This document shows, piece by piece, positions 1 through 45,380 of a stretch of 45,380 bases of DNA. The notes under the pieces were generated by a model. That model made no database searches, was not told where the DNA came from, and was given only the letters and a program-made list of their open reading frames with translations. Made by a program: the position numbers and the translations under genes. The DNA lies in IMG/VR virus record IMGVR_UViG_3300037834_000026, positions 1 to 45,380 of that record. One strand, given 5' to 3'. The stretch comes from a virus. Taxonomy: Duplodnaviria; Caudoviricetes. Numbering within the stretch: the first letter of the stretch is position 1; every line of letters begins with the position of its first letter.

Positions 1-1167
1 ATGGCGAAGAAACCATCGGTACGGTACTGGGACAGCCGCGAAGCCTACGGCTGCTGGATCGACGGCACACAGCATATTCTAGCCAAAGGCCCGAACGACG
101 GCCCGAAGGGTCCGACGTACAAGGCGGCCGTGGCCCGCTTCCAAAAGCTGATCGCCATGGAGGCCGACAAGGGCACCGACGAATATCTGGTGTCGTCGCT
201 CCTGAACCAGTACCGCGTGCACCTGCACGCCACCCGCAAGAGCGGCGTGCCCGGCGTGTTCGACATCATGGCCCGCGACTTCGGCAAGAAGTTCGGATCG
301 AAGAAGGTCCGCGAGCTGAAGCCCCACGACTTCGACGGGTGGCTCGCCTCCCAGACGCAGTGGAACCCCACCAGCCAGGCCCACGCCGCCACGCTCATTC
401 TCGGAGCGCTGGGCTGGGCGAAGCGCAAGGGCTTCATCCAGAACGACCCGCTCACCGGCCGCATCGAGCGGCCGCAGCCGATCCTGCGGGGCCGCGACGC
501 GCGCATGAGCGAAGAACTCATGGACCTGCTCATCGGCGAGTGCTTCGCCAAGGCCACGTACCACCGCAAGAAGAGGACGAACACGCCGGCCGTTCACCAC
601 CGCAAGACCGGGTTCTCGGAGAAGTTCGGCAAGTTCCTGTGGCTCCTGCGGCTGACCGGCGCGCGGCCCATCGAAATCCGCATGGCCGAGGCGCACAACT
701 ACCAGAACGGCCGGATCGTCTACCGCTGGAACGCGACGCGTGGCTACGTCCACAAGACGGCGAAGAAGACGCAGCGGGACCGCGTTCTGTTCCTGACGCC
801 CGAGGCCCAGGCGTACGCCGAGGAGTGCATCAAGAAGTACCCGGAGGGGCCGATCTTCCGCACCTCGCGCGGCGACCCGTGGGGGCTGACCAACTGCACG
901 CAAAAGTGGCGGCAATGGCTGCTCAAGCGGCCCAAGGTCGTCGCGTACCTGAAAGAACACGACATCGACCCACGGCAAATCCGCATTTACAACTTCCGCC
1001 ATTCGTGGGCCTGTAACTACCTGGACCGGACGGGCGACGTGTTCGGCGCCGCCATGATGCTCGGCACGTCGGTGAAGATGTTGCAGACGCGGTACTTTCA
1101 CATGGACGAGGAGAAGCTGCACGCCCGGTATCTTGAGTTCATGGCGGGGCGGCAGAAGACGGAGTGA
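1..1167 (+). CDS. int: Tyrosine recombinase/integrase
   Basis: LTGARPIEI (catalytic R), YNFRHSW (HxxR box variant), LGTS..MLQTRY (catalytic Y). Confidence 0.93.
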   Translation: MAKKPSVRYWDSREAYGCWIDGTQHILAKGPNDGPKGPTYKAAVARFQKLIAMEADKGTDEYLVSSLLNQYRVHLHATRKSGVPGVFDIMARDFGKKFGSKKVRELKPHDFDGWLASQTQWNPTSQAHAATLILGALGWAKRKGFIQNDPLTGRIERPQPILRGRDARMSEELMDLLIGECFAKATYHRKKRTNTPAVHHRKTGFSEKFGKFLWLLRLTGARPIEIRMAEAHNYQNGRIVYRWNATRGYVHKTAKKTQRDRVLFLTPEAQAYAEECIKKYPEGPIFRTSRGDPWGLTNCTQKWRQWLLKRPKVVAYLKEHDIDPRQIRIYNFRHSWACNYLDRTGDVFGAAMMLGTSVKMLQTRYFHMDEEKLHARYLEFMAGRQKTE

Positions 1168-4448: not shown

Positions 4449-4733
4449 CTACTTGCCCGTCAGGATTCGCAGCCACAGCGGCCGCGTGTTCACGAACGGC
4501 TCGGCGGTCACGAGCGCGTCCACGTTCTTCTTGATCAGCTCGCGTGCCTTCTTCTGGGCCTCGTCAAGCGTGGCAGCTTCGATCTGCCAAATGGCGCAGC
4601 GGACACGGTACTTCATGGCTCGGCGGGGGAGGGAGTAATGCCCTCCCATCGCCCGGCGCAGGCCGTAGGGCAATGTGGAGACTTCGCAAAGTACTACATT
4701 GCCCGAAGGCCGAGCCGTGGCACACTTGGGCAT
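4449..4733 (-). CDS. Hypothetical protein (alternative start 4616)
   Basis: GGAGG SD before ATG 4733; the C-terminal 55 aa look most protein-like. Confidence 0.5.
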   Translation of the reverse strand: MPKCATARPSGNVVLCEVSTLPYGLRRAMGGHYSLPRRAMKYRVRCAIWQIEAATLDEAQKKARELIKKNVDALVTAEPFVNTRPLWLRILTGK

Positions 4734-4803
4734 TGCATCCTCCAGGCGGGCCTGGGCGGGTGGGTGGGAAAGTGCGTAAGTACTTAACCATCCCACTGGG
4801 TAT

Positions 4804-5604
4804 TCACGCATGCGCGGCAACCATGCCACCTTCGTGTCGCCCTTCGTTGCCCCCTTCGTGAATGGCGTATTTGCCACCGTCCAGGCCCGTCCAAATCCGC
4901 CCGTACGGGCTGGCGACCACGTGTTCGATGATGGCGAAGTAGGCATGCTCGCCCAGCGCCTTCGACCACCGCATCGCCCTCTCGATGCGCGAATCGTCCG
5001 GGCACACGATCAGCTTGTCGTCCTTGTTGCCCTCGTATTTTTTCCACCGGGCCTGCACCTGTTCGCGGCTCATGGTGCCGGTGTCGATCTCGACGTGGCA
5101 CGCCTTGCCGTCGATCACGAGGGTGGCGTCGGGCTGCAAAGCGGGGTCCACTTCGGCGCCCGTGAGGAACTTGTGCGGCCAGTACGCCAGGCAAACCTCC
5201 ATGACGTACGCCTCGTGTTCACGATTGCCGAGCTTGATGGAGCGGCTGCACCAGTGGTCTTCCGGGTGCGTGCGCAGCGCTTTCAGGTGCAGCTTTCCGA
5301 GCGGGTAGAGCTGCCGGTCGTCGTACAAGGCGCTCATGCGCCGGGACGCGCGCGTCTTCGTGCGGAACAGGCCGATGGCGATCAGGTGACGGAGCGTGAT
5401 CGGCCCCTTGCGTGCGAGCGCTACGATCGCCGCATCACGCTGCCTGCCTTTGGCGTTGCTGGAGATGATGGCGGTGGGGGTGGAACAGGCGGCAATTGTA
5501 CCACCGGCACCCTGTACTCCGGCCGCCGCTTGATCGCGTCCAGCAGGTCCAGGAACTTCTTTTCCGCCAGTGTCATCCCGTTTCGCAAAGAAAGACCAGA
5601 CCAT
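4804..5604 (-). CDS. Replication-relaxation (Replic_Relax-like) protein, putative relaxase
   Basis: N-terminal wHTH-like part, then HE..V..V, LQPDATL, HVEIDTGTMS, RWKKY (PD-(D/E)xK-type pattern); GGAGAGG SD; overlaps the 3' end of the ATPase gene. Confidence 0.75.
   Translation of the reverse strand: MVWSFFAKRDDTGGKEVPGPAGRDQAAAGVQGAGGTIAACSTPTAIISSNAKGRQRDAAIVALARKGPITLRHLIAIGLFRTKTRASRRMSALYDDRQLYPLGKLHLKALRTHPEDHWCSRSIKLGNREHEAYVMEVCLAYWPHKFLTGAEVDPALQPDATLVIDGKACHVEIDTGTMSREQVQARWKKYEGNKDDKLIVCPDDSRIERAMRWSKALGEHAYFAIIEHVVASPYGRIWTGLDGGKYAIHEGGNEGRHEGGMVAAHA
4829..4859. repeat. 3 x CCTTCGT at 12-bp spacing
   Basis: Copies at 4829, 4841, 4853, within the relaxase 3' end. Confidence 0.7.
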
Positions 5605-6926
5605 AATTCCCTCTCCATCGGCATGTACTCGGGTTCTTCGGTGGCGCTCACGCCGGCGATGAAGCAGTATCCGGGGCCGAGCGTGGTGATCTTCTGCGCG
5701 ACCTTCGCCGTCCACTCCTGGGGCGTGAAGTGCCGTGGCCGCTCCTCCACTTCCTCGCGGTACTTCGCCCGCGCCACGACGTTCGTGTTGCTGCTCTTGC
5801 CCTTCGTCTTCCCCTTGCCGTCCAGCTGCACGCCGCTGCTCGTCACCTCCTCGTACTCGTAGCCGTCGTGCACCTGGCGCTTGTGGAACTCCACGAACTT
5901 GACGCGCAGCGGGTCGTACAGTCTGCTCGCAACGTCCTCGGCGGCGAACTGCGCGGCCTTCGGCGATCCCTGCCGGAACCAGTAGTGCATCATGTTCTGC
6001 ATGACGTTCTCTTCGATTTCCTCGGTGGGAAACACCGCTTGCTGCACGATGATGTCGCACCACCAGTCCCACTTCCCGCCTTCTGCCAGCCCGCGCGAGA
6101 GCTGCGGCGTGACGAGCGCGGAGTTCACCGCCTCGTCGTAGACGTTCAGCACGGGCACCCGGAGCTTGCCGGAGCGCGCCAGCATGAGGACGGAGTGCGA
6201 CAGCGCCCGCATCATGGTCCCGCCGGCGTAGCGCGACAGGTTGCCGCGCGAACTGCCGTCCAGGATCAGCACCCCGTAGTTGTTCAGGAACTCCGCCAGG
6301 TCGAAGCTCGCGCCGTCGCGGACGTACACGCTCGGGCATTCGCAGAAGTTCTTGAGGATGCGCGTGGCCGGGCCGCACTTGTACTCCCACTGCGACGGCG
6401 ACAGCGTGTTGTAGTACTCGAACCGCGCCAGCACGCCGGGGTCCGTGCAGTGCCGCAGGAAGTCGCTCTGCTCCGGCCCTTCGCGGAAGACGCGGGCCAG
6501 CCAGCGGATCGGTGCGCGGCGGTCCTGGGCGAAGTACAGGTCCAGCGCGGCGTCCAGGCCTTCGCGGATGATCGGCGACGCGGAGTCGTCCATCATGCCG
6601 CGCTCGGAGAGCAGGGTTTCCTTGAACGACTGCTTGCGTTCGTCGTTCTCCTGCGCCCGTTGCAGCTCGTCCGGGTTGTTGCTTACCGCCAGGAATTCGT
6701 AGCCCAGCGTCCGGTCGGTGTCGGAGAGCCGGTCGTACAGCACCCGGCTCCGGGCGCCCTCCGCCGCCAGGCGCATCGCCAGCTTCATGGTGAACGTGCC
6801 GTGCGCGTCGTAGGCGACCACCGCGCACTCCCGGCGCTTCACCCGCCGGACGACGTAGCCGAGTTCGTGTTCGCTCTTGCCCGAGCGGGTGGCGCCGCAG
6901 ACAAGGCGGTGATAAAACTTGCTCAT
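5421..6926 (-). CDS. VirD4/TraD-like coupling ATPase (FtsK-HerA superfamily)
   Basis: Walker A GATRSGKS, Walker B LNVYDEA, LAEGGK...IIVQQ; adjacent to relaxase-like gene. Confidence 0.8.
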   Translation of the reverse strand: MSKFYHRLVCGATRSGKSEHELGYVVRRVKRRECAVVAYDAHGTFTMKLAMRLAAEGARSRVLYDRLSDTDRTLGYEFLAVSNNPDELQRAQENDERKQSFKETLLSERGMMDDSASPIIREGLDAALDLYFAQDRRAPIRWLARVFREGPEQSDFLRHCTDPGVLARFEYYNTLSPSQWEYKCGPATRILKNFCECPSVYVRDGASFDLAEFLNNYGVLILDGSSRGNLSRYAGGTMMRALSHSVLMLARSGKLRVPVLNVYDEAVNSALVTPQLSRGLAEGGKWDWWCDIIVQQAVFPTEEIEENVMQNMMHYWFRQGSPKAAQFAAEDVASRLYDPLRVKFVEFHKRQVHDGYEYEEVTSSGVQLDGKGKTKGKSSNTNVVARAKYREEVEERPRHFTPQEWTAKVAQKITTLGPGYCFIAGVSATEEPEYMPMERELWSGLSLRNGMTLAEKKFLDLLDAIKRRPEYRVPVVQLPPVPPPPPSSPATPKAGSVMRRS

Positions 6927-7189
6927 GGCTTGCTCTGTGGTCCCGTATCCTCTTGGTCCAGGTGTTCGTAATCCTCGGTGTAGGCGCGCACCTTCTCCGC
7001 CATCCGGTTGTAGGAGCCGACCGTCCACGCTTCGAGCATGTCGTCGGGCAGCACCCCGGCGTATCCGTTAATGAACTTCTGCCGTCGCAAATACCCGCCG
7101 ATGACTTGCTTTGCCTGGTCCTCGGTCAGACTCTCCCTCGGCGGCGGGAGGGTCAGTTTCGGCCAGCGCTTGAACAGCCAGGAGAGCAC
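6923..7189 (-). CDS. Hypothetical protein
   Basis: 88 aa; stop overlaps ATPase start (ATGA). Confidence 0.65.
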   Translation of the reverse strand: MLSWLFKRWPKLTLPPPRESLTEDQAKQVIGGYLRRQKFINGYAGVLPDDMLEAWTVGSYNRMAEKVRAYTEDYEHLDQEDTGPQSKP

Positions 7190-31237: not shown

Positions 31238-31885
31238 CTACGCCTGCTCGCCGCCCTTCGCCAACTCCTTCTCCCAGTGAATACATCGGGAATAGAAACT
31301 TGACGGACTGTCGATTCCGTTGCCCCTGCGCCACTCCGACCAGGCCTTGGCGACCGCCTGCGGGCGGGCCCGGCGGCGGAGTGAGGCGACGTAGGCCTTC
31401 GGGTTTCCCACTCCCTCGTATCGGGCGAGTTCTCGTTCGATTTCGAAATCGATGCCCCCGGTGTTCGTGTGATTTGGTTCTGGTGACTTGCTACTCATGT
31501 CTTTATTCATTGGTTCACCTTTGCGTTCACCTTGCCGTTCACCTTTGCGTTCACCAACCCGTTCACCCTGCCTCTGGTATTTGGCATAGTTTACAACAAA
31601 ATACCGTTCACCTTTTCGTTCACTCCATCGTTCACCTTGCCGTTCACTTGTGCGTTCACCAACTTTTGTGATCTGGTCTTCTTTCATCCAGTAAGCCATC
31701 CACTTGAACACCGTGCTCTTCCCAACACGCCAACGGTTGGCCAGAAAGCCGTAGCTGACGGTGACGATTCCATTCTCGAAGTTCGTCAGCGTGAGCAGGT
31801 CGATCCAAGCCAAGGTACGCTCCGGCGTTTTCCACTCCTCGGGCGTGATGCCTTGCCGGTGCAGGAGGATGTATCCGTCCCTCAT
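31238..31885 (-). CDS. Phage replication initiator (lambda O-like)
   Basis: GYILLHR...W...AWIDLL N-terminus, HTH-like SYGFLANRWRVGKSTV, internal iterons. Confidence 0.8.
   Translation of the reverse strand: MRDGYILLHRQGITPEEWKTPERTLAWIDLLTLTNFENGIVTVSYGFLANRWRVGKSTVFKWMAYWMKEDQITKVGERTSERQGERWSERKGERYFVVNYAKYQRQGERVGERKGERQGERKGEPMNKDMSSKSPEPNHTNTGGIDFEIERELARYEGVGNPKAYVASLRRRARPQAVAKAWSEWRRGNGIDSPSSFYSRCIHWEKELAKGGEQA
31513..31659. repeat. Iteron array, putative replication origin
   Basis: GTTCAC at 31513, 31525, 31537, 31549, 31561 and 31606, 31618, 31630, 31642, 31654, flanking an AT-rich spacer. Confidence 0.85.
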
Positions 31886-35399: not shown

Positions 35400-35731
35400 G
35401 CAGCGACGCGGTTTACGAGGCCAAGGGCAACGTTGACATCCATCCAGAAAGCGACGTTTCCGTTCTCGGCGTCCATCCAATTGCATGCCATCTTCCACTC
35501 GCCATCTTCGCGGACGAGGATGCCCTGCTCTCGGATGCGCGCAATGATCTCGCGGATGCGCGGGCGCGACAGGGACACGAGCGGTGCCAGCTGCCGGAGG
35601 GTCGGCAGGTAGCCGGTGCCAACGGCCAGCAGGATCACGGCGACCTGGAAGGCTACGTCCTCTTCGCTCAACTTCGGATCAAGGTCGTGGGCCAGTGCTT
35701 TGACTTCTTCCGGGGTGAGGTTGGCGCTCAT
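35396..35731 (-). CDS. Possible winged-helix protein
   Basis: LRQLAPLVSLSRPRIREIIARIREQGIL. Confidence 0.6.
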   Translation of the reverse strand: MSANLTPEEVKALAHDLDPKLSEEDVAFQVAVILLAVGTGYLPTLRQLAPLVSLSRPRIREIIARIREQGILVREDGEWKMACNWMDAENGNVAFWMDVNVALGLVNRVAA

Positions 35732-35790
35732 AACGTGAGGAGTGAAAGGATGGGTCCGCCGATGCAGAGGGCGTAGAAGATGGTGGTCAT
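35728..35790 (-). CDS. 20-aa hydrophobic peptide
   Basis: MTTIFYALCIGGPILSLLTL; ATGA overlaps at both ends. Confidence 0.5.
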   Translation of the reverse strand: MTTIFYALCIGGPILSLLTL

Positions 35791-35942
35791 TTGGCTTTTG
35801 GAGAAGGCGGCGGACAGCGGAGCCAGTGGCGCCATAAACCGGTGTTTGTCTTGATGCCGTTTTCCTTCCGGCGCTTGGCGGCCAGGGCGCGGTCCTCGTC
35901 GTCCATGTAGATGGTGGTGGGCTTGGGGTTCTGTAACGTCAT
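35787..35942 (-). CDS. 51-aa ribbon-helix-helix-like regulator (not in ORF track)
   Basis: MTLQNPKPTTIYMDDEDRALAAKRRKENGIKTNTGLWRHWL...; ATG 6 nt after TATCCT. Confidence 0.65.
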   Translation of the reverse strand: MTLQNPKPTTIYMDDEDRALAAKRRKENGIKTNTGLWRHWLRCPPPSPKAK

Positions 35943-35948
35943 GGCCAA

Positions 35949-36017
35949 AGGATACATGAGCTAGTGCAAGATGCAATAGACAAACCTATTGCATTATGAT
36001 GTTACCCGTGCTACTAT
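35949..36017. promoter_or_regulatory. Divergent promoter pair/genetic switch
   Basis: Rightward TTGCAT-N17-TACTAT (35989-36017); leftward TTGCAT-N16-TATCCT (35976-35949); inverted repeat ATGCAATAG-N6-CTATTGCAT. Confidence 0.75.
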
Positions 36018-36044
36018 GTTCACGTCACTTCCCCACACATCTCT

Positions 36045-36461
36045 ATGGCTCTCAAGCCACTCACCCCGGAAGAACTCGCCACCGAAGAGGCGCGCATCCA
36101 GGCCTACGAAGACCAGGGCATGACGCGCAGCGATGCGCAGGGACGCGTCGAAGCCGAAGACAGGTTCCCGGAGGACAAGACCACAGCACCGGCGCACACT
36201 CCTGGACCGTGGAAAGCCCTCAACTGGATGGTGTACGACGGAAACGACAAGCCGATCTGCGAATGCAAAGGCAAGGTGGTCGGGGCTGGCCTCTCCGCTC
36301 CCGACCACAATGCCAACCGCATCGTCGCCTGCGTGAACGCCTGCGAGGGGTTGAACCCGGAGGCCGTGAAGGAAATGTACGAAATGCTCCGCGTCCTGAA
36401 CGAACGCCTGGATGATCCCGAAATTGACGCCCTGCTCGCCAAAGCCGAAGGCCGTTCCTGA
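36045..36461 (+). CDS. Phage early protein
   Basis: HTPGPW and ANRIVACVNACEG motifs common in phage early genes. Confidence 0.75.
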   Translation: MALKPLTPEELATEEARIQAYEDQGMTRSDAQGRVEAEDRFPEDKTTAPAHTPGPWKALNWMVYDGNDKPICECKGKVVGAGLSAPDHNANRIVACVNACEGLNPEAVKEMYEMLRVLNERLDDPEIDALLAKAEGRS

Positions 36462-36485: not shown

Positions 36486-36899
36486 ATGGCCACCGCCAAC
36501 CCCACAGCACCGGCACGACTCGCCATCTTCGTCGCCACGAAGCAGACCCAGGGCAAACGCCGTTCGGATTTCTGCTGGTGCGAAGAGGACGAGCCGGTTC
36601 ACTTCTCGTCCCAGTGCGACGGCAACGACACCATCGACGGCGGTTGCGGGTGCCAGCGGTCCATGTCCGGTATGACCACGCTCAAGGCAACGACGACGGT
36701 TCGCGTGAAGGAATCGGACATGACCCGTGAGCAGTACATTCAGATGCTCGTGGACAGCTACAAGAAGGGAGGCTGGGGCGGCCTCATTCCATCTACTGAA
36801 ATCCACGCGGAAGCGGATGAACTACTCCGCCTCGCCGCTGCTTTCCCCGTTGGGACCGTTATCGAGAAACGCGGCGACGAATTGCGACAGCGAGCCTAG
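36486..36899 (+). CDS. Cys-rich uncharacterised protein
   Basis: VATKQTQG..SDFCW.EE.E...DGGCGC.RS.SG....ATTT. Confidence 0.75.
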   Translation: MATANPTAPARLAIFVATKQTQGKRRSDFCWCEEDEPVHFSSQCDGNDTIDGGCGCQRSMSGMTTLKATTTVRVKESDMTREQYIQMLVDSYKKGGWGGLIPSTEIHAEADELLRLAAAFPVGTVIEKRGDELRQRA

Positions 36900-36905
36900 C
36901 GTTGT

Positions 36906-36944
36906 GCGGCTCGTTGGAGCCGCCCCTGGTGGGCTTACTCACCA
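36906..36944 (+). repeat. Two-hairpin intergenic motif, copy 1
   Basis: GCGGCTC/GAGCCGC then TGGTGGG-CTTA-CTCACCA. Confidence 0.6.
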
Positions 36945-36971
36945 CTGCTCTATCACAGCAAAGGCAACCAA

Positions 36972-37145
36972 ACGAGGATCGGAAGCTGGCGTGGTATCAA
37001 CGCGGGACCGCTAATGCAATCCCGCACATCGGGACGCCGAGCCACACATGGCAGGTGCGTACGCCCGGTTCGCAACCGGAAACGCCTAGCGCACGAAGTG
37101 GGCAGGGGGAAAGTATGCCCCCTGCCGCCAGCTTCCGGTCCTCGT
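36972..37145 (+). ncRNA. Putative multibranched structured RNA
   Basis: 20-bp closing stem (one U.G) enclosing at least five internal stems. Confidence 0.65.
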
Positions 37146-37161
37146 CTTATCCAATACCAAC

Positions 37162-37248
37162 ATGCCTCCCATGTACTACTTCGAACCCCAGGAAGTCCGT
37201 CTCACGACGTTCTCCGGCAACGTGATCGTCCTGCCCCTCCGATGGTAG
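37162..37248 (+). CDS. 28-aa peptide
   Basis: MPPMYYFEPQEVRLTTFSGNVIVLPLRW; overlaps next start. Confidence 0.4.
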   Translation: MPPMYYFEPQEVRLTTFSGNVIVLPLRW

Positions 37249-37337
37249 CCGCGATCATCGCCCTCATCATCGGCCTCTGCATCATCATCGATCTCGTCCG
37301 GCACCTGCTGGACGGCACTTCCATCTTCCTCCCATGA
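37242..37337 (+). CDS. 31-aa hydrophobic peptide
   Basis: MVAAIIALIIGLCIIIDLVRHLLDGTSIFLP; ATGA-coupled to next gene. Confidence 0.6.
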   Translation: MVAAIIALIIGLCIIIDLVRHLLDGTSIFLP

Positions 37338-38110
37338 CACACAACACCTTCACCATCGGCCGCCCGCGCCGGCCCCTGTTCCACTTCGTCCCCGCCGCAG
37401 AGAACGCGGCACCCGCTCGCCGCTCCGTCGGCACGGTCCTGCACGGAAAGTTTCTGGATTGGCTGGCCGCTTCCGACATCCGCAAGCTGGCAACCCGCTC
37501 CGCCATGATCCTCCTGCTGGCCGGGCTCGTCGGCAGCACCCAGTTCACGCTCGGCCTGCTCACCGCCGCCGCCAAGTGGAACGGCTACCGCATCCCGCTC
37601 TTCCTCGCGCTGCTCGCTCTGACGTTGAACGCCAAGACCATTTTCCTGGCATCAAGAAAATGGTCGCTCAGACGCCGGGGTGCCAATCAGCACACGTACC
37701 AGGGGCTCCCCGTGGACGAACTGGCGAGCTACCTGCTGGAGACGCGCGCCTTCACCCGCGACGCCGCGTGCCTCAAGTTCGCCATTTCCTGGAAGAAGCA
37801 CCAGCGCATCGCCGACGAACTCATGCACCACCAAGTGCTGGTCCGTGGCCCGGTGAACAACGCCCGCGTCCTCAACGAGAAGATCACCCGCGAGCAACTT
37901 GTCCGCCAGCTGCGCGAGAACTTCCCGCTCGCCTTCGCGGACGGGGAGTGGGTGGAGAGGCGCGGCAGCTACCACCTCTTTCTGCGGGACAAGGAACGCG
38001 CCGAGCAGAAGGAGCGCGAGCGCGTGGAACGCCTGGAGCGCCGGGCCGACCGGGCGGAACGAAAGCTCACCCGGACGACTGGCCTTCAAAGGCTGTTCGC
38101 GCAGACGTAG
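37334..38110 (+). CDS. Two-TM protein with FtsK-gamma-like winged helix and coiled coil
   Basis: Two hydrophobic helices; FAISWKKHQRIADELMHHQVLVRGPVNNARVL; KERERVERLERR tail. Confidence 0.65.
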   Translation: MTHNTFTIGRPRRPLFHFVPAAENAAPARRSVGTVLHGKFLDWLAASDIRKLATRSAMILLLAGLVGSTQFTLGLLTAAAKWNGYRIPLFLALLALTLNAKTIFLASRKWSLRRRGANQHTYQGLPVDELASYLLETRAFTRDAACLKFAISWKKHQRIADELMHHQVLVRGPVNNARVLNEKITREQLVRQLRENFPLAFADGEWVERRGSYHLFLRDKERAEQKERERVERLERRADRAERKLTRTTGLQRLFAQT

Positions 38111-39661: not shown

Positions 39662-40102
39662 ATGCTCCTCTCCGAAGCCCTCGCAGACCTCAAAGCCAGC
39701 TACCTCGCCGTTCAGAGTGAGAACGTCCAACGCCAGGCCATCATGGAAACGCCGGAGTACAAGGCGCTCAAAGAGAAGATGGACGCTATGCTCGCCGTCG
39801 TTCCTGACAGTTCCGATGAATACGCCGCCGACCTGGCCGCCACGCTCAAGTTCATGAACGAGAACGGGATTCACAAGGCCGAAGGATTCGTGGTCAAGAC
39901 CCGGGCCACCCGAAGCGTCGATGTCCTGGCCGTACTCCGCGCGATGGGCGGCGACATCGACAACCTCATGCTCGTTACGAACGTCACGCAGAAGAGCCTG
40001 GAGAAATTCATCAAAGACAACCCCGGCTACAAGGCCGACCTGCGCGCCTGCATTAAGGACGAGGGCGTTAAGGTTGTCGATGTCGCGCCACAAACCGTTT
40101 AG
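39662..40102 (+). CDS. Hypothetical protein
   Basis: Pyrimidine-rich leader; 146 aa. Confidence 0.7.
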   Translation: MLLSEALADLKASYLAVQSENVQRQAIMETPEYKALKEKMDAMLAVVPDSSDEYAADLAATLKFMNENGIHKAEGFVVKTRATRSVDVLAVLRAMGGDIDNLMLVTNVTQKSLEKFIKDNPGYKADLRACIKDEGVKVVDVAPQTV

Positions 40103-40128: not shown

Positions 40129-40359
40129 ATGAAAACTCAATCCGCCTGGGCCACCATCAGCGGCAAAGTGTACGTCTCGCAGGACGAAATTGACGACCTG
40201 CTCGCCGCCGGTGAAGACGAGGCCGGAAACAAGATCACGACGGAGCAAGACGCATTTAAACACCTGGCTGAGGCCAAGTTGTTCGCCCTGTTCCCGACCG
40301 ACGACCCGTTCAAGCACAACGAAACCGTGATCGACATGACTTCGCTGCGAACCAGCTAG
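40129..40359 (+). CDS. Hypothetical protein
   Basis: Pyrimidine-rich leader; 76 aa. Confidence 0.7.
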   Translation: MKTQSAWATISGKVYVSQDEIDDLLAAGEDEAGNKITTEQDAFKHLAEAKLFALFPTDDPFKHNETVIDMTSLRTS

Positions 40360-40370
40360 AGCCCAGCGGG

Positions 40371-40417
40371 TGCGGCCCGTGTCGTGGGGCCGGGCCGCAG
40401 CCGGTGCGCTTTGCACT
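40371..40417 (+). repeat. Two-hairpin intergenic motif, copy 2
   Basis: TGCGGCCCG/CGGGCCGCA then GGTGCG-CTT-TGCACT. Confidence 0.55.
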
Positions 40418-40438: not shown

Positions 40439-40654
40439 ATGCCGACGTTCACCGTCCACCGCAAGGAATCCGTTGTCTCCGCCGCCGAGATCGAAGCCCG
40501 CGACGAGGCCCACGCGCTGCAAATCGCGCGCGCCCTTGAGGGCACCGAGAACCAGCCGAAGTACGCGGAGCAGTCGCGGTCGTCGCCGCGCCTGTCGATC
40601 CCCGGCTACTCGCCGCGCAAGGGCGACAAGCCCGACGATTCGGAGCAAGCCTAG
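40439..40654 (+). CDS. Hypothetical protein
   Basis: MPTFTV...EIEARDEAHALQIA. Confidence 0.7.
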   Translation: MPTFTVHRKESVVSAAEIEARDEAHALQIARALEGTENQPKYAEQSRSSPRLSIPGYSPRKGDKPDDSEQA

Positions 40655-40660
40655 CGGTGA

Positions 40661-40699
40661 GCCGCATGCCCCGCGTGCGGCCCCCGGTGGGCTTCCACC
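40661..40699 (+). repeat. Two-hairpin intergenic motif, copy 3
   Basis: GCCGCATGC/GCGTGCGGC then GGTGG-GCTT-CCACC. Confidence 0.6.
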
Positions 40700-42873: not shown

Positions 42874-43296
42874 ATGGACATGTTCACCAAGGAGCGGCGT
42901 TCCGAGATCATGGCCCGAATAACCGGCAAGGACACCAAGCCGGAGATTCTGGTCAGGAGGCTCCTGCACCGCATGGGGTTCCGGTTTCGGATTCACAGGA
43001 CGGATTTGCCTGGGAAGCCTGACATCGTGCTGCCGAAGTACAAGTCCGTGGTCTTCGTTCACGGGTGCTTCTGGCACGGGCACGATTGCAAGAAGGGAAG
43101 CTCGACGCGCCGCCCCAAGAGCAACACCGGCTACTGGAACCAGAAGCTGGACCGCAATCGGACACGTGACGCACGTAACGCAGAGCAGCTGCGAGACCTG
43201 GGCTGGAGGCGGATTGTCATATGGGCCTGCGAAATGGCAGACCTGGAAAGTCTAGAACGCCGGCTGCGAACGGAGTTGGAAAGCACTCCGTCGTGA
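42874..43296 (+). CDS. vsr: Very short patch repair endonuclease
   Basis: RSEIMARI.GKDTKPE, LPGKPDIV, FVHGCFWHGH, LGW....WACE. Confidence 0.95.
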   Translation: MDMFTKERRSEIMARITGKDTKPEILVRRLLHRMGFRFRIHRTDLPGKPDIVLPKYKSVVFVHGCFWHGHDCKKGSSTRRPKSNTGYWNQKLDRNRTRDARNAEQLRDLGWRRIVIWACEMADLESLERRLRTELESTPS

Positions 43297-44240
43297 AGCC
43301 GACGGTGGCCTCGTTTTTCTCGGGCATCGGCGGCTTCGATCTGGGTTTCGAGCGTGCCGGGTTCAGTGTGACTTACCAGTGTGAGATCAATGCATACTGC
43401 CGATCAATCCTCCAGAAACACTGGCCGATCCTCACGCCGAGCGAGGACATCAAAAAAGCCACCGACCGAACAGCCATCCCTGTTTCCGATGTCTGGGCCG
43501 GAGGATTCCCCTGCCAAGACGTCTCCTTGGCTCGCATGGGGCCGAGAGCTGGGCTTAAAGGGCGACAGTCTGGACTCTTTCATGAGTTTTCTCGGTTGGT
43601 TGGAGAGCACCGCCCCAGAGTTGTTCTCATCGAAAACGTGCCAGGTCTTCTCTCTTCCCACGAAGGGCGAGACTTCCTCGTTGTCGTTCAAACTCTGGCC
43701 GAACTCGGGTATGGTGTGGGATGGCGTGTGCTTAACAGCAAAAACTTCGGAATCCCCCAGTCACGCCAGCGAGTCTTCATTGTGGGAACTCATGGAGAAA
43801 GGGGAGGTCCCGCAGAAGTACTTTTTGAGTCCGAATGCGGCGAAGGGAATTCTGCGCCGCGCGGACCGGATGAAGCGCGAGCTGTTTCCCCCTTTAAGGA
43901 AAGCGTTGGAGATCCTATCAAAGGCCCAATCGTGAAGCGGATGGCGCACTGCCTGTACGCCTGCTCGGCACGCCATACCGGGACCGACTGGAGCCGGAAT
44001 TACGCCGTCTACCCCGAAGGCCGAGTCCGCCGGTTCGTGCCCGTTGAGTGCGAGCGGTTGCAAGGCTTCCCGGACGGTTGGACCATACCGGCAGAGGGCT
44101 CGCCGTTCTGCTGCGCCGACGACCTCGACTCGCTGCGGTACTACGCCCTTGGCAACGCTGTTTCTGTTCCCGTCGCCGAGTGGCTTGCTACCCGCATCGC
44201 CCGCTACCTCGCCAACCATCCGACATCAGCCAAAAAGTAA
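43293..44240 (+). CDS. C5 cytosine methyltransferase (alpha polypeptide)
   Basis: FFSGIGG, GGFPCQD, IENVPG, QSRQRVF, ECERLQGFPD, GNAVSVPV; GTG overlaps vsr stop. Confidence 0.95.
   Translation: MKPTVASFFSGIGGFDLGFERAGFSVTYQCEINAYCRSILQKHWPILTPSEDIKKATDRTAIPVSDVWAGGFPCQDVSLARMGPRAGLKGRQSGLFHEFSRLVGEHRPRVVLIENVPGLLSSHEGRDFLVVVQTLAELGYGVGWRVLNSKNFGIPQSRQRVFIVGTHGERGGPAEVLFESECGEGNSAPRGPDEARAVSPFKESVGDPIKGPIVKRMAHCLYACSARHTGTDWSRNYAVYPEGRVRRFVPVECERLQGFPDGWTIPAEGSPFCCADDLDSLRYYALGNAVSVPVAEWLATRIARYLANHPTSAKK
43381..43935 (+). CDS. Overprinted +1-frame ORF, putative MTase beta polypeptide
   Basis: 184 codons inside the MTase gene; WPNSGM...SESPS...SSL..LME...PQKYFLSP.AA.GILRRA; start uncertain. 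Confidence 0.7.
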   Translation: MRSMHTADQSSRNTGRSSRRARTSKKPPTEQPSLFPMSGPEDSPAKTSPWLAWGRELGLKGDSLDSFMSFLGWLESTAPELFSSKTCQVFSLPTKGETSSLSFKLWPNSGMVWDGVCLTAKTSESPSHASESSLWELMEKGEVPQKYFLSPNAAKGILRRADRMKRELFPPLRKALEILSKAQS

Positions 44241-45380
44241 CGTCTCCAGCGCGGCCAGCGCTTCCGGCGACGGCCGCTCCGCAGCGCTCGCCGGGAGTCT
44301 CGGCGACGGGATCGTTCCGCTGCCCCGCAAGACCGCCTCGTCAATTTGAACGCCGGCGTCCTGCATCCTCTCCGCCGACGCCGCCGGAACGATGACCTCG
44401 TATGCGGTGCCGTTCCAGCGCACCAGGATCAGCCCCTCGTCAAACGCCCAGTGGTGCAGCTTGCACAGGCAGATGCCGTTGCGCGCGTGGTCCAGGTCGT
44501 ACTCCGCGTATGGCAGGATGTGCGCCGAGTCCACGCCGGGGCATCCGCCGCTGCCGACCGGCGGCAGGCGAAGGCCGCAGACCGCACAGGTGAACCGCCA
44601 AGCCCGCTGCACCTGGCGCCGGAACCGCACCGCAGAACCTCCCCGCGCGGCGGCCCATCTGCGCTGTTGGGCGATGGTCCGGCGCCGAAGCACGATATCC
44701 TCTTGCGGGATCGCCGTCGGGTTGATGTTCGCCTCGGGCGGGTCGATCTGGATGATGCTCTCCAGCGTGGGAAGCGGGTCGGTGTTCGGCGCGGCGGGCA
44801 CCACGTCATAGTCCGCCGCCGTCTCCGCCATACGCTGCTGTAGGTCGTCGGTGATCCTCAATGCGTCGTGAGACACCATCCCGCCGCCCTGCATGAGCTG
44901 GCGATGCTCGGCCAACAGGTCTCTAACATCGTCCTCGTACCTGGCCGCGTGGTCCCACAGCCGAACAACCTCGGCGTAGCGGTCGGCGAACGCGAACTCA
45001 TGCTGTCCCGACTGGTTGCGCACCTCCACCAGACGGACGGTCACGACCGCCAGCCCCGGCTGCGTCACGTCCACTGCGCCGAGCCGCAGGTGCATGATGC
45101 CGTACTCCCGGTTGCGCATGATTGGCTGGCCGGGCATCCAGGCGTCCTCATCGCGGGCCGGTCGTGGAAGCAGGAGCGCTCCGGCGACGTGCCAGTGTGG
45201 ATACAGGTCGCGCCCGCCGGCCTGGTCGGCAGCGAGCCGTATACGATGCTTGCCGCCCTGCTCGCCAAAGATCGATCCGGTGTCGATGGTGTTCCCGTCG
45301 GGAAGGCGGATGCGGATGCGACGCCCGAGAAGGACGTCCTGCTGCGGGTCTCCGGTCTGGAAGTCCGGGTCCCCCGGCAT
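44226..45380 (-). CDS. HNH endonuclease, putative cognate restriction enzyme
   Basis: CAVCG...DSAHILP....D..RNGICLCKLHHWAFDEGLI; convergent with MTase. Confidence 0.85.
   Translation of the reverse strand: MPGDPDFQTGDPQQDVLLGRRIRIRLPDGNTIDTGSIFGEQGGKHRIRLAADQAGGRDLYPHWHVAGALLLPRPARDEDAWMPGQPIMRNREYGIMHLRLGAVDVTQPGLAVVTVRLVEVRNQSGQHEFAFADRYAEVVRLWDHAARYEDDVRDLLAEHRQLMQGGGMVSHDALRITDDLQQRMAETAADYDVVPAAPNTDPLPTLESIIQIDPPEANINPTAIPQEDIVLRRRTIAQQRRWAAARGGSAVRFRRQVQRAWRFTCAVCGLRLPPVGSGGCPGVDSAHILPYAEYDLDHARNGICLCKLHHWAFDEGLILVRWNGTAYEVIVPAASAERMQDAGVQIDEAVLRGSGTIPSPRLPASAAERPSPEALAALETLLFG

Follow-up and report, generated by a model that had tools for sequence, protein, structure and literature searches.

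The stretch of DNA analysed here, hereafter the window, covers the entire record of a provirus (45,380 nt) which, according to Pfam and PHROG assignments, encodes an integrase, Mu-like head genes, a terminase, a tape measure protein and two cytosine methylases. A 174-nt structured element is located among small rightward genes, with a DUF7715 gene upstream, and two tiny ORFs followed by a gene coding for a 258-aa protein downstream (Table 1). Pyrimidine-rich leaders precede the gene starts and Shine-Dalgarno sequences are absent. No promoter match was found in the window just ahead of the small ORFs, unlike in the related loci L001, L003, L005 and L009, so that the three genes downstream of the element depend on read-through. 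For the 258-aa protein no firm family was obtained from a PDB sequence search or from the Atlas; its structural model has a pLDDT of 77.8, and the top Foldseek rows correspond to FtsK-gamma and MarR, none of them at E<=0.001. A single DNA run, which may be the source of the record, showed neither a variant nor a joint.

Other structured or mobile features were noticed along the window. The hairpin that follows the DUF7715 gene has two look-alikes on the same strand, at 40358-40413 and 40646-40697; the three are interrupted hairpins placed at or just past early-operon stop codons (z -4.2 to -4.4), they have a closing sequence in common, and they are possible processing or antitermination sites. 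An 18-bp inverted repeat (35702-36077) flanks the divergent promoter region that separates the leftward operon from the rightward one, and a perfect 16-bp inverted repeat (18 bp with one mismatch; 39951-40086, z -4.6) lies within a conserved 146-aa gene, in its coding sequence. A plasmid-like module at the end of this tailed prophage (4804-7028, - strand) consists of a Replic_Relax-like gene and the gene next to it, both shared with the L001 prophage. Immediately downstream of the Replic_Relax-like gene, itself on the - strand, there is a strong fold with a long hairpin (4583-4756, z -4.6). A DnaD-like replication gene contains 12-nt tandem repeats (31489-31672), possibly an origin. The right end (42874-45380) carries a Vsr endonuclease, a cytosine methylase and a cut-off HNH_2 gene, and the second cytosine methylase is encoded mid-genome (33277-34770).

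Table 1. Features of the element and its operon, and of the stem-closed ORFs of G304. Coordinates are those of the window unless a locus is named.
Feature	Coordinates	Strand	Remarks
Promoter of the early operon (predicted; sigma70-type, extended -10), from which transcription would pass through the element	35989-36017	+	Consensus match only; unlisted by a generic scanner
Operon gene 1, 138 aa	36045-36461	+	Weak homologue in L001, same position
DUF7715 gene, immediately 5' of the element	36486-36899	+	PF24831, E 6.5e-36
Separate intergenic hairpin	36891-36937	+	z -4.2; one of three look-alikes
P1 5' arm	36972-36991	+	Outer part like the L005 stem; inner part identical to the L003 cassette stem
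Loop of ~110 nt, confined to the 5' side; contains four or five small helices	36992-37101	+	Position of the 11-30-nt promoter-bearing loop of the cassettes
P2 5' strand	37101-37109	+	p 1.0; counterpart strand in four HNH cassettes
P2 loop, 8 nt; site of the -10 box and HNH gene in relatives	37110-37117	+	Aligns with the last L003 and L064 HNH codons
P2 and P1 3' strand, unbroken	37118-37145	+	
ORF1, 28 aa	37162-37248	+	Start 16 nt past P1; small ORFs likewise placed in L001, L003 and L005
ORF2, 31 aa, small, hydrophobic	37242-37337	+	
258-aa protein, hydrophobic N-terminal helices and winged-helix-like domain	37334-38110	+	Anchor for relatives
G304 stem-closed ORFs, 84, 100 and 155 aa	L100 18342-18670; L101 10459-10853; L101 10996-11613	+; -; -	27-29-bp stems

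The pairing of 36972-36991 with 37126-37145, from which the sequence-only reading of this locus had started, was borne out. This closing helix, P1, comprises 19 Watson-Crick pairs and one U.G on the + strand, forms with a probability of 0.98 and is the longest near-perfect inverted repeat within 600 nt across the 45.4-kb genome; taken alone it scores 25.8 and beats, narrowly, the maxima (19.7-24.1) of eight out of eight block-shuffled genomes. The whole 174-mer has a minimum free energy of -102.7 kcal/mol on the + strand (z -8.48, with none of 200 shuffles as good), and the - strand folds with equal energy (z -7.45). All the inner helices that had been named also occur in the ensemble, five of six with p>=0.89, namely 37002-37007/37020-37025 (p 0.99), 37029-37032/37037-37040 (p 0.96), 37055-37060/37089-37094 (p 0.89), 37065-37070/37074-37079 (p 0.94) and P2, 37101-37109/37118-37126 (p 1.0); the sixth, 37041-37044/37049-37052, reaches p 0.57 and has a competing alternative at 0.38. 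When P1 is removed (36992-37125) the z-score falls to -2.05, with 10 of 300 shuffles as good, and the interior deprived of both P1 and P2 (36992-37099) gives a z of -1.32, with 33 of 300 shuffles as good. The fold is real; its strength is owed to the 20-bp P1 and the stacked 8-9-bp P2, and the multibranched interior is not unusual.

The statement that no credible ORF covers the element needs qualification, as two 107-codon frames overlap it (36902-37225 and 37014-37337), although the second of these has no Pfam or PHROG match. The exclusion of known RNAs held: Rfam 15 returned no window hit at the gathering cut-off (the best match inside the element at E<=10, Chlorobi-1, scored 11.9 bits against a threshold of 50), ARAGORN called no tRNA or tmRNA, and the hammerhead core is absent. 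Group I and II intron cores, RNase P, SRP, Y RNA and T-box were dropped on inspection against their generally known consensus. An rRNA intervening sequence was also considered; the element is intergenic in a phage operon and gave no rRNA hit.

Relatives of the locus were fetched via the 258-aa protein, for which at least 14 hits including itself were obtained, and the alignment gave ten loci, one of them being the window's own record. Among the nine relatives there is one full cassette (L003) and one outer-stem look-alike (L005), six have no match to the element and one (L010) has no upstream DNA; such patchy presence at one site among related phages is a mark of free-standing homing endonucleases. 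In L003 a 22-bp stem (1006-1470) is placed upstream of the same small-ORF and 258-aa genes. Its inner 5' arm (10 nt) and its 3' strand over 17 nt (37116-37132 of the window) are identical to those of the window, and the outer arms differ yet pair. This stem encloses a 128-aa ORF matching PHROG endonuclease (2e-11) and HNH (9e-8) families. L005 presents, at the same gene position, an 88-nt HNH-free stem-loop (348-435, z -5.7) with another interior, whose outer arm shares 14 of 16 positions with that of the window (10-11 in the seven other loci tested) and which keeps 16 of 17 pairs, three of them with two-sided changes. L001 has an unrelated 69-nt stem-loop; this locus adjoins a tRNA-Ala and its contig carries planctomycete-type genes. 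No match to the element was found in L004 and L006-L009; nested inverted repeats are clustered in L007 (2175-2503) and a 25-bp hairpin occurs in L006 (11042-11109). The 258-aa family was detected in one of the 301 genomes of the family of G001, that is, in G001 alone, and searches of IMG/VR with the neighbour proteins confirmed none.

The enclosed gene of L003 gave access to a wider set of elements. At least 22 database relatives of its HNH protein were found, and an 18-sequence alignment fetched 32 viral loci; taking as full-length a match running from residue 1 to beyond residue 100, six of 33 loci qualify. In four of these six (L003, L061, L064 and L065) a shell encloses the gene, with stems of 21-31 bp scoring 16.9-27.1, while L062 and L063 have a full-length HNH gene and no enclosing stem; the best enclosing stem among the 27 loci with partial matches, a few of which are incomplete, scores 15.0. 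In L063 the 3' end of the shell-less HNH gene overlaps the 5' end of a tRNA-like gene, which is followed by a tRNA-Asn (2355-2426). The four cassettes, each with an HNH-type ORF at an intergenic site as in free-standing HNH cassettes, have a common architecture: the stem begins 59-76 nt before the ATG and ends 2-39 nt past the stop codon, the 3' strand is unbroken, and the 5' strand is divided into two blocks, P1 and P2, by a gap of 30, 11, 13 and 13 nt in L003, L061, L064 and L065, respectively, the corresponding gap in the window being of ~110 nt. All four have a -35 match within this 5'-side gap and, 6 nt upstream of the ATG, the end of an extended -10, from which a leaderless HNH message is predicted. 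Together with the window, the enclosed elements span 174-473 nt and their duplexes 20-31 bp, and no Rfam match was found over the elements of L003, L005, L061, L064 and L065. The AlphaFold model of the L003 HNH protein has a pLDDT of 88; a wide structural search placed two HNH nicking endonucleases on top, with low Z (4.4 and 4.3), and Foldseek gave no match at E<=0.001. Within its phylum the HNH family was found in two of 401 genomes, as partial matches, and the profile detected no shell there.

Stem-closed genes are not confined to this family. In 144.5 kb from five HNH-bearing viral records, five stems score >=18 over >=150 nt: the L065 cassette, one stem within a repeat-rich gene, and three in G304 that each surround one whole ORF (Table 1), the longest of which, with 155 aa, resembles another zinc-binding HNH by eye. 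Read on the strand of the gene, two of the G304 stems show four and five G.U and no A.C, and the third two and four. Closing by a stem may be a general way to lodge genes in operons, with this HNH family as one case.

Several comparisons link the window to these cassettes. The stretch 37108-37145 aligned to L003 and to L064 with none of 500 shuffles as good in each case, and the 5' arm of the window aligned to that of L003 with 4 of 500 shuffles as good. The 5' parts of L061 and L065, and of L064 and L065, are related to each other, with none of 500 shuffles as good in either pair. The window, compared directly with L061 and L065, showed no significant similarity (93 and 59 of 500 shuffles), and it is linked to these two only through L064. 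The P2 loop of the window aligns with the terminal codons of the L003 and L064 HNH genes, and in the frame 37014-37337 the 3' strand still encodes seven residues found near the end of the L003 protein. With an invariant GCC as the anchor, 66 of 72 P1 cells remain paired, 34 of them through changes on both sides, as do 25 of 28 P2 cells, counts that are descriptive and do not amount to a formal covariation test, because the helices were picked for pairing. On the sense strand G.U exceeds A.C by 11 to 5 (p 0.105), a bias that does not establish selection at the RNA level. What relatives share with the element is the closing shell, which in them wraps an HNH gene that the sequence-only reading could not see, and not the multibranched interior. 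The ~110-nt loop, which makes up over half of the element, has no significant match in the cassettes: 68-486 of 500 shuffles did as well, and for the L003 loop 90 and 142 of 2000 did. A remnant of the HNH protein in the interior was sought and rejected, as the best tblastn matches (E 0.046 and 0.079) both extend into the shared 3' strand. No gene of the HNH family was found in the provirus, in a search that had no positive control.

Wider searches retrieved no further copies. An nhmmer profile of the 3' strand run over 99 sequences (612 kb) returned only the five elements on which it was trained; the element matched annotated phage DNA in one chance 25-nt hit and plasmids in six short chance hits, and the L061 5' arm gave 13 weak hits in phages. 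In IMG/VR, scans gave no hit for the closing-stem pattern, three for the 17-mer of the 3' strand, all due to chance, and three for the L061/L065 pattern, corresponding to the two known loci and one chance match; the outer-arm pattern gave 37 hits, none of which pairs at more than 14 of 17 positions, compared with 17 in the window and 16 in L005.

Taken together, these data suggest, with a probability that we put at about 55%, that the element is the gene-less remnant of a mobile HNH cassette with paired ends, and a predicted RNase III processing or insulating site in an early polycistronic transcript. Homing endonuclease genes are described as decaying and then being lost following fixation, and a deletion within the P2 loop is the simplest account of the window; loss is the probable direction and not a proven one, since gain by the relatives, with an HNH gene entering an ancestral loop, would produce an identical alignment. 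According to the model that we propose, read-through transcripts of full cassettes would fold the shell, which would loop the HNH gene out of the operon message and put the upstream stop codon near the downstream start, and the 20-31-bp shell duplex would be offered for a predicted cleavage by RNase III. The internal promoter, with its -35 box in the 5'-side loop and its -10 box six nt before the ATG, would produce a leaderless HNH message, which would stay unfolded because both 5' arms are missing from this transcript. In the window the HNH gene and its -10 box would have been deleted and the shell would still be cut, which would separate the DUF7715 cistron from the three genes that follow it and set free, as a by-product, a stem-closed RNA of ~130-170 nt. 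With 20 bp in P1 and 8-9 bp in P2, the element has the kind of duplex expected of RNase III substrates (~10-36 bp, long-range pairing allowed), and a predicted RNase III-excisable, stem-closed + strand RNA, as the sequence-only reading had proposed, is the likeliest physical reading.

Other explanations were weighed against a cassette remnant. The element could be a trans-acting phage ncRNA, either one whose P2 loop was invaded by the HNH gene in relatives or one for which the shell was re-used to hold a new structured RNA. The interior is indeed packed with helices, five of the six being highly probable, the stretch 36995-37055 gives a z of -3.3 (having been chosen after the fact), P1 is almost perfect, which speaks against long decay, and in L005 a stem whose outer arm is similar carries no HNH gene. 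However, the interior as a whole is no more stable than a z of -1.3, a second copy of it was not found in phage, plasmid, IMG/VR, relative-locus or profile searches, and the longest complement elsewhere in the genome is 12 nt, in a head gene, shorter targets being indistinguishable from chance. Moreover, the shell travels with the HNH gene and not with the interior, because L061, L064 and L065 are unrelated contigs with only 11-13-nt loops. We regard a trans-acting RNA as unlikely, and the roles of immunity RNA, anti-defence decoy or leader switch suggested from the sequence alone did not find support: no match of >=13 nt to the element exists elsewhere in the genome on either strand, the provirus has no reverse transcriptase, no Nop-domain gene and no tigRNA unit, and the Rfam C4 families have no match in the window. 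A role at the DNA level, in which an HNH-mobilised element would have the arms as its terminal inverted repeats and the window would contain a MITE-like non-autonomous derivative, would be in agreement with the inner junction sequence, conserved across five elements whatever the reading frame, and with the equal folding of both strands and the non-significant G.U bias. A MITE match had been named beforehand as grounds for giving up the RNA interpretation, and the 20-bp terminal inverted repeats do fit, but neither multiple copies nor target-site duplications were found, the element being single-copy in the provirus and the ends of six elements showing no duplication. The outer arms also vary between elements while pairing persists, and the 5' arm is interrupted, whereas the arms of transposase-bound repeats are not known to be interrupted or variable in such a manner. 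A DNA-level role appears quite improbable.

Three further possibilities concern the RNA itself. The coaxial arrangement of P1 and P2 without a 3'-side linker recalls the top half of a tRNA, and a tRNA-derived mimic could be envisaged in which the inner 7 bp of P1 serve as the acceptor stem, with U8-G9 next to it, and P2 corresponds to a T-stem with a replaced loop; the 5' loop of L003 even looks D-arm-like by eye, judged by the tRNA consensus. This last likeness is explained by the -35 box that lies there, and the T-loop consensus, an anticodon arm and a CCA at the stem end are all absent. ARAGORN found nothing at default settings and at relaxed thresholds made inconsistent calls with other ends, and no element has an Rfam tRNA hit, all of which makes a mimic very improbable. 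It is just as doubtful that the element works in cis, as a leader switching the three genes downstream, an idea suggested by the start of ORF1, only 16 nt after P1, and by the missing promoter of these genes mentioned above. The start region is not sequestered in the fold, no U-run follows the stem, no Rfam riboswitch match was obtained, and a P1 that is paired with a probability of 0.98 leaves little room for switching. Retron msr-msd RNAs are of comparable size and have a closing inverted repeat, so that an orphan retron ncRNA was considered, together with a stem-loop tigRNA serving as a decoy. Stem-loop tigRNAs exist in phages, according to the available text of PMC12045711, and a stem-loop TIGR guide RNA is characterized, in the accessible part of its description, by two box C-9 nt-box D units in the stem, an array and a Nop-domain gene alongside (bioRxiv 10.64898/2026.09.09.750476). 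The provirus gave no match to PF00078, for which three of 14 control genomes were positive, and none to PF01798, a profile from which Tas proteins are possibly too remote; in the element a box C-9 nt-box D unit of the strict form is absent, a single relaxed pair has a stem of only 1 bp, and there is no array. As the relatives enclose an HNH gene, a decoy of either kind is hardly credible.

The cassettes can be compared with several known systems. ORF-bearing intervening sequences of 23S rRNA consist of a long stem that closes an ORF, and are excised by RNase III without religation. The cassettes are similar in their ORF closed by a long stem and in their predicted removal by RNase III without religation, and differ in lying outside rRNA, in carrying HNH cargo instead of a four-helix bundle, and in possessing an internal promoter and a one-sided loop. 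The T-even homing endonucleases (I-TevI/II/III, segB and Aeh1 mobE) are described, in the available text of PMC2988022, as silenced on read-through transcripts by a structure that is missing from the transcripts of their own promoters. As far as that text goes, they resemble the cassettes in having an intergenic endonuclease gene, a structure present only on read-through transcripts, an own-promoter transcript without the 5' half of the structure (for the cassettes, a prediction), and an ORF whose 3' end runs into the structure, as in L003 and L065. In the T-even cases covered there, a local hairpin hides the Shine-Dalgarno sequence, whereas in the cassettes a long-range duplex closes the whole gene; the predicted leaderless start, the sigma70-like promoter and the lack of an intron core also set the cassettes apart, and the window is geneless. 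Bacillus subtilis RNase III is reported, in the accessible part of PMC11780869, to cut duplexes of 10-36 bp with sites up to 505 nt apart, and both the duplexes and the spans of the cassettes are inside these ranges, cleavage of the cassettes being a prediction; unlike the bacterial mRNA duplexes considered there, the cassette duplex belongs to a mobile unit. The PeSL cassettes of T4-type phages, as presented in the available portion of PMC2839356, are alike in being an optional promoter-plus-stem module in a variable early region, but their stems are local terminators with many repeats, and the stem of the element is long-range and single-copy and has no U-run. In the way they would work, the cassettes parallel free-standing homing endonucleases under structural control as well as rRNA intervening sequences that bear an ORF, and are a strict member of neither. 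A shell around a whole gene with a looped-out -35 box was not found described in the open-access literature searched, and motif catalogues other than Rfam may include one. A bolder proposal, which we consider clearly unlikely, is that the cassettes are undescribed mRNA intervening sequences, in which the conserved P1/loop/P2 junction is a dedicated signal, bound by the HNH protein or used in processing, through which the unit leaves phage operon transcripts as a stable RNA, either stem-closed or circular, and that the shell can shed its nuclease and take new RNA cargo; if true, the cassette shell would be a route by which phages gain new ncRNAs.

How free-standing homing endonucleases insert harmlessly into tightly coupled phage operons is a question answered only in part, and the control of most T4 examples is described as not obvious in the available text of PMC2988022. 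A shell that closes the gene and loops the -35 box out of one of its arms is a compact solution, seen in four phage contigs. The findings also call for caution, since some ornate stem-closed phage RNAs picked from one genome are cassette shells. For the life cycle of these elements, the window would mark a late stage, in which the shell is retained and the gene is gone.
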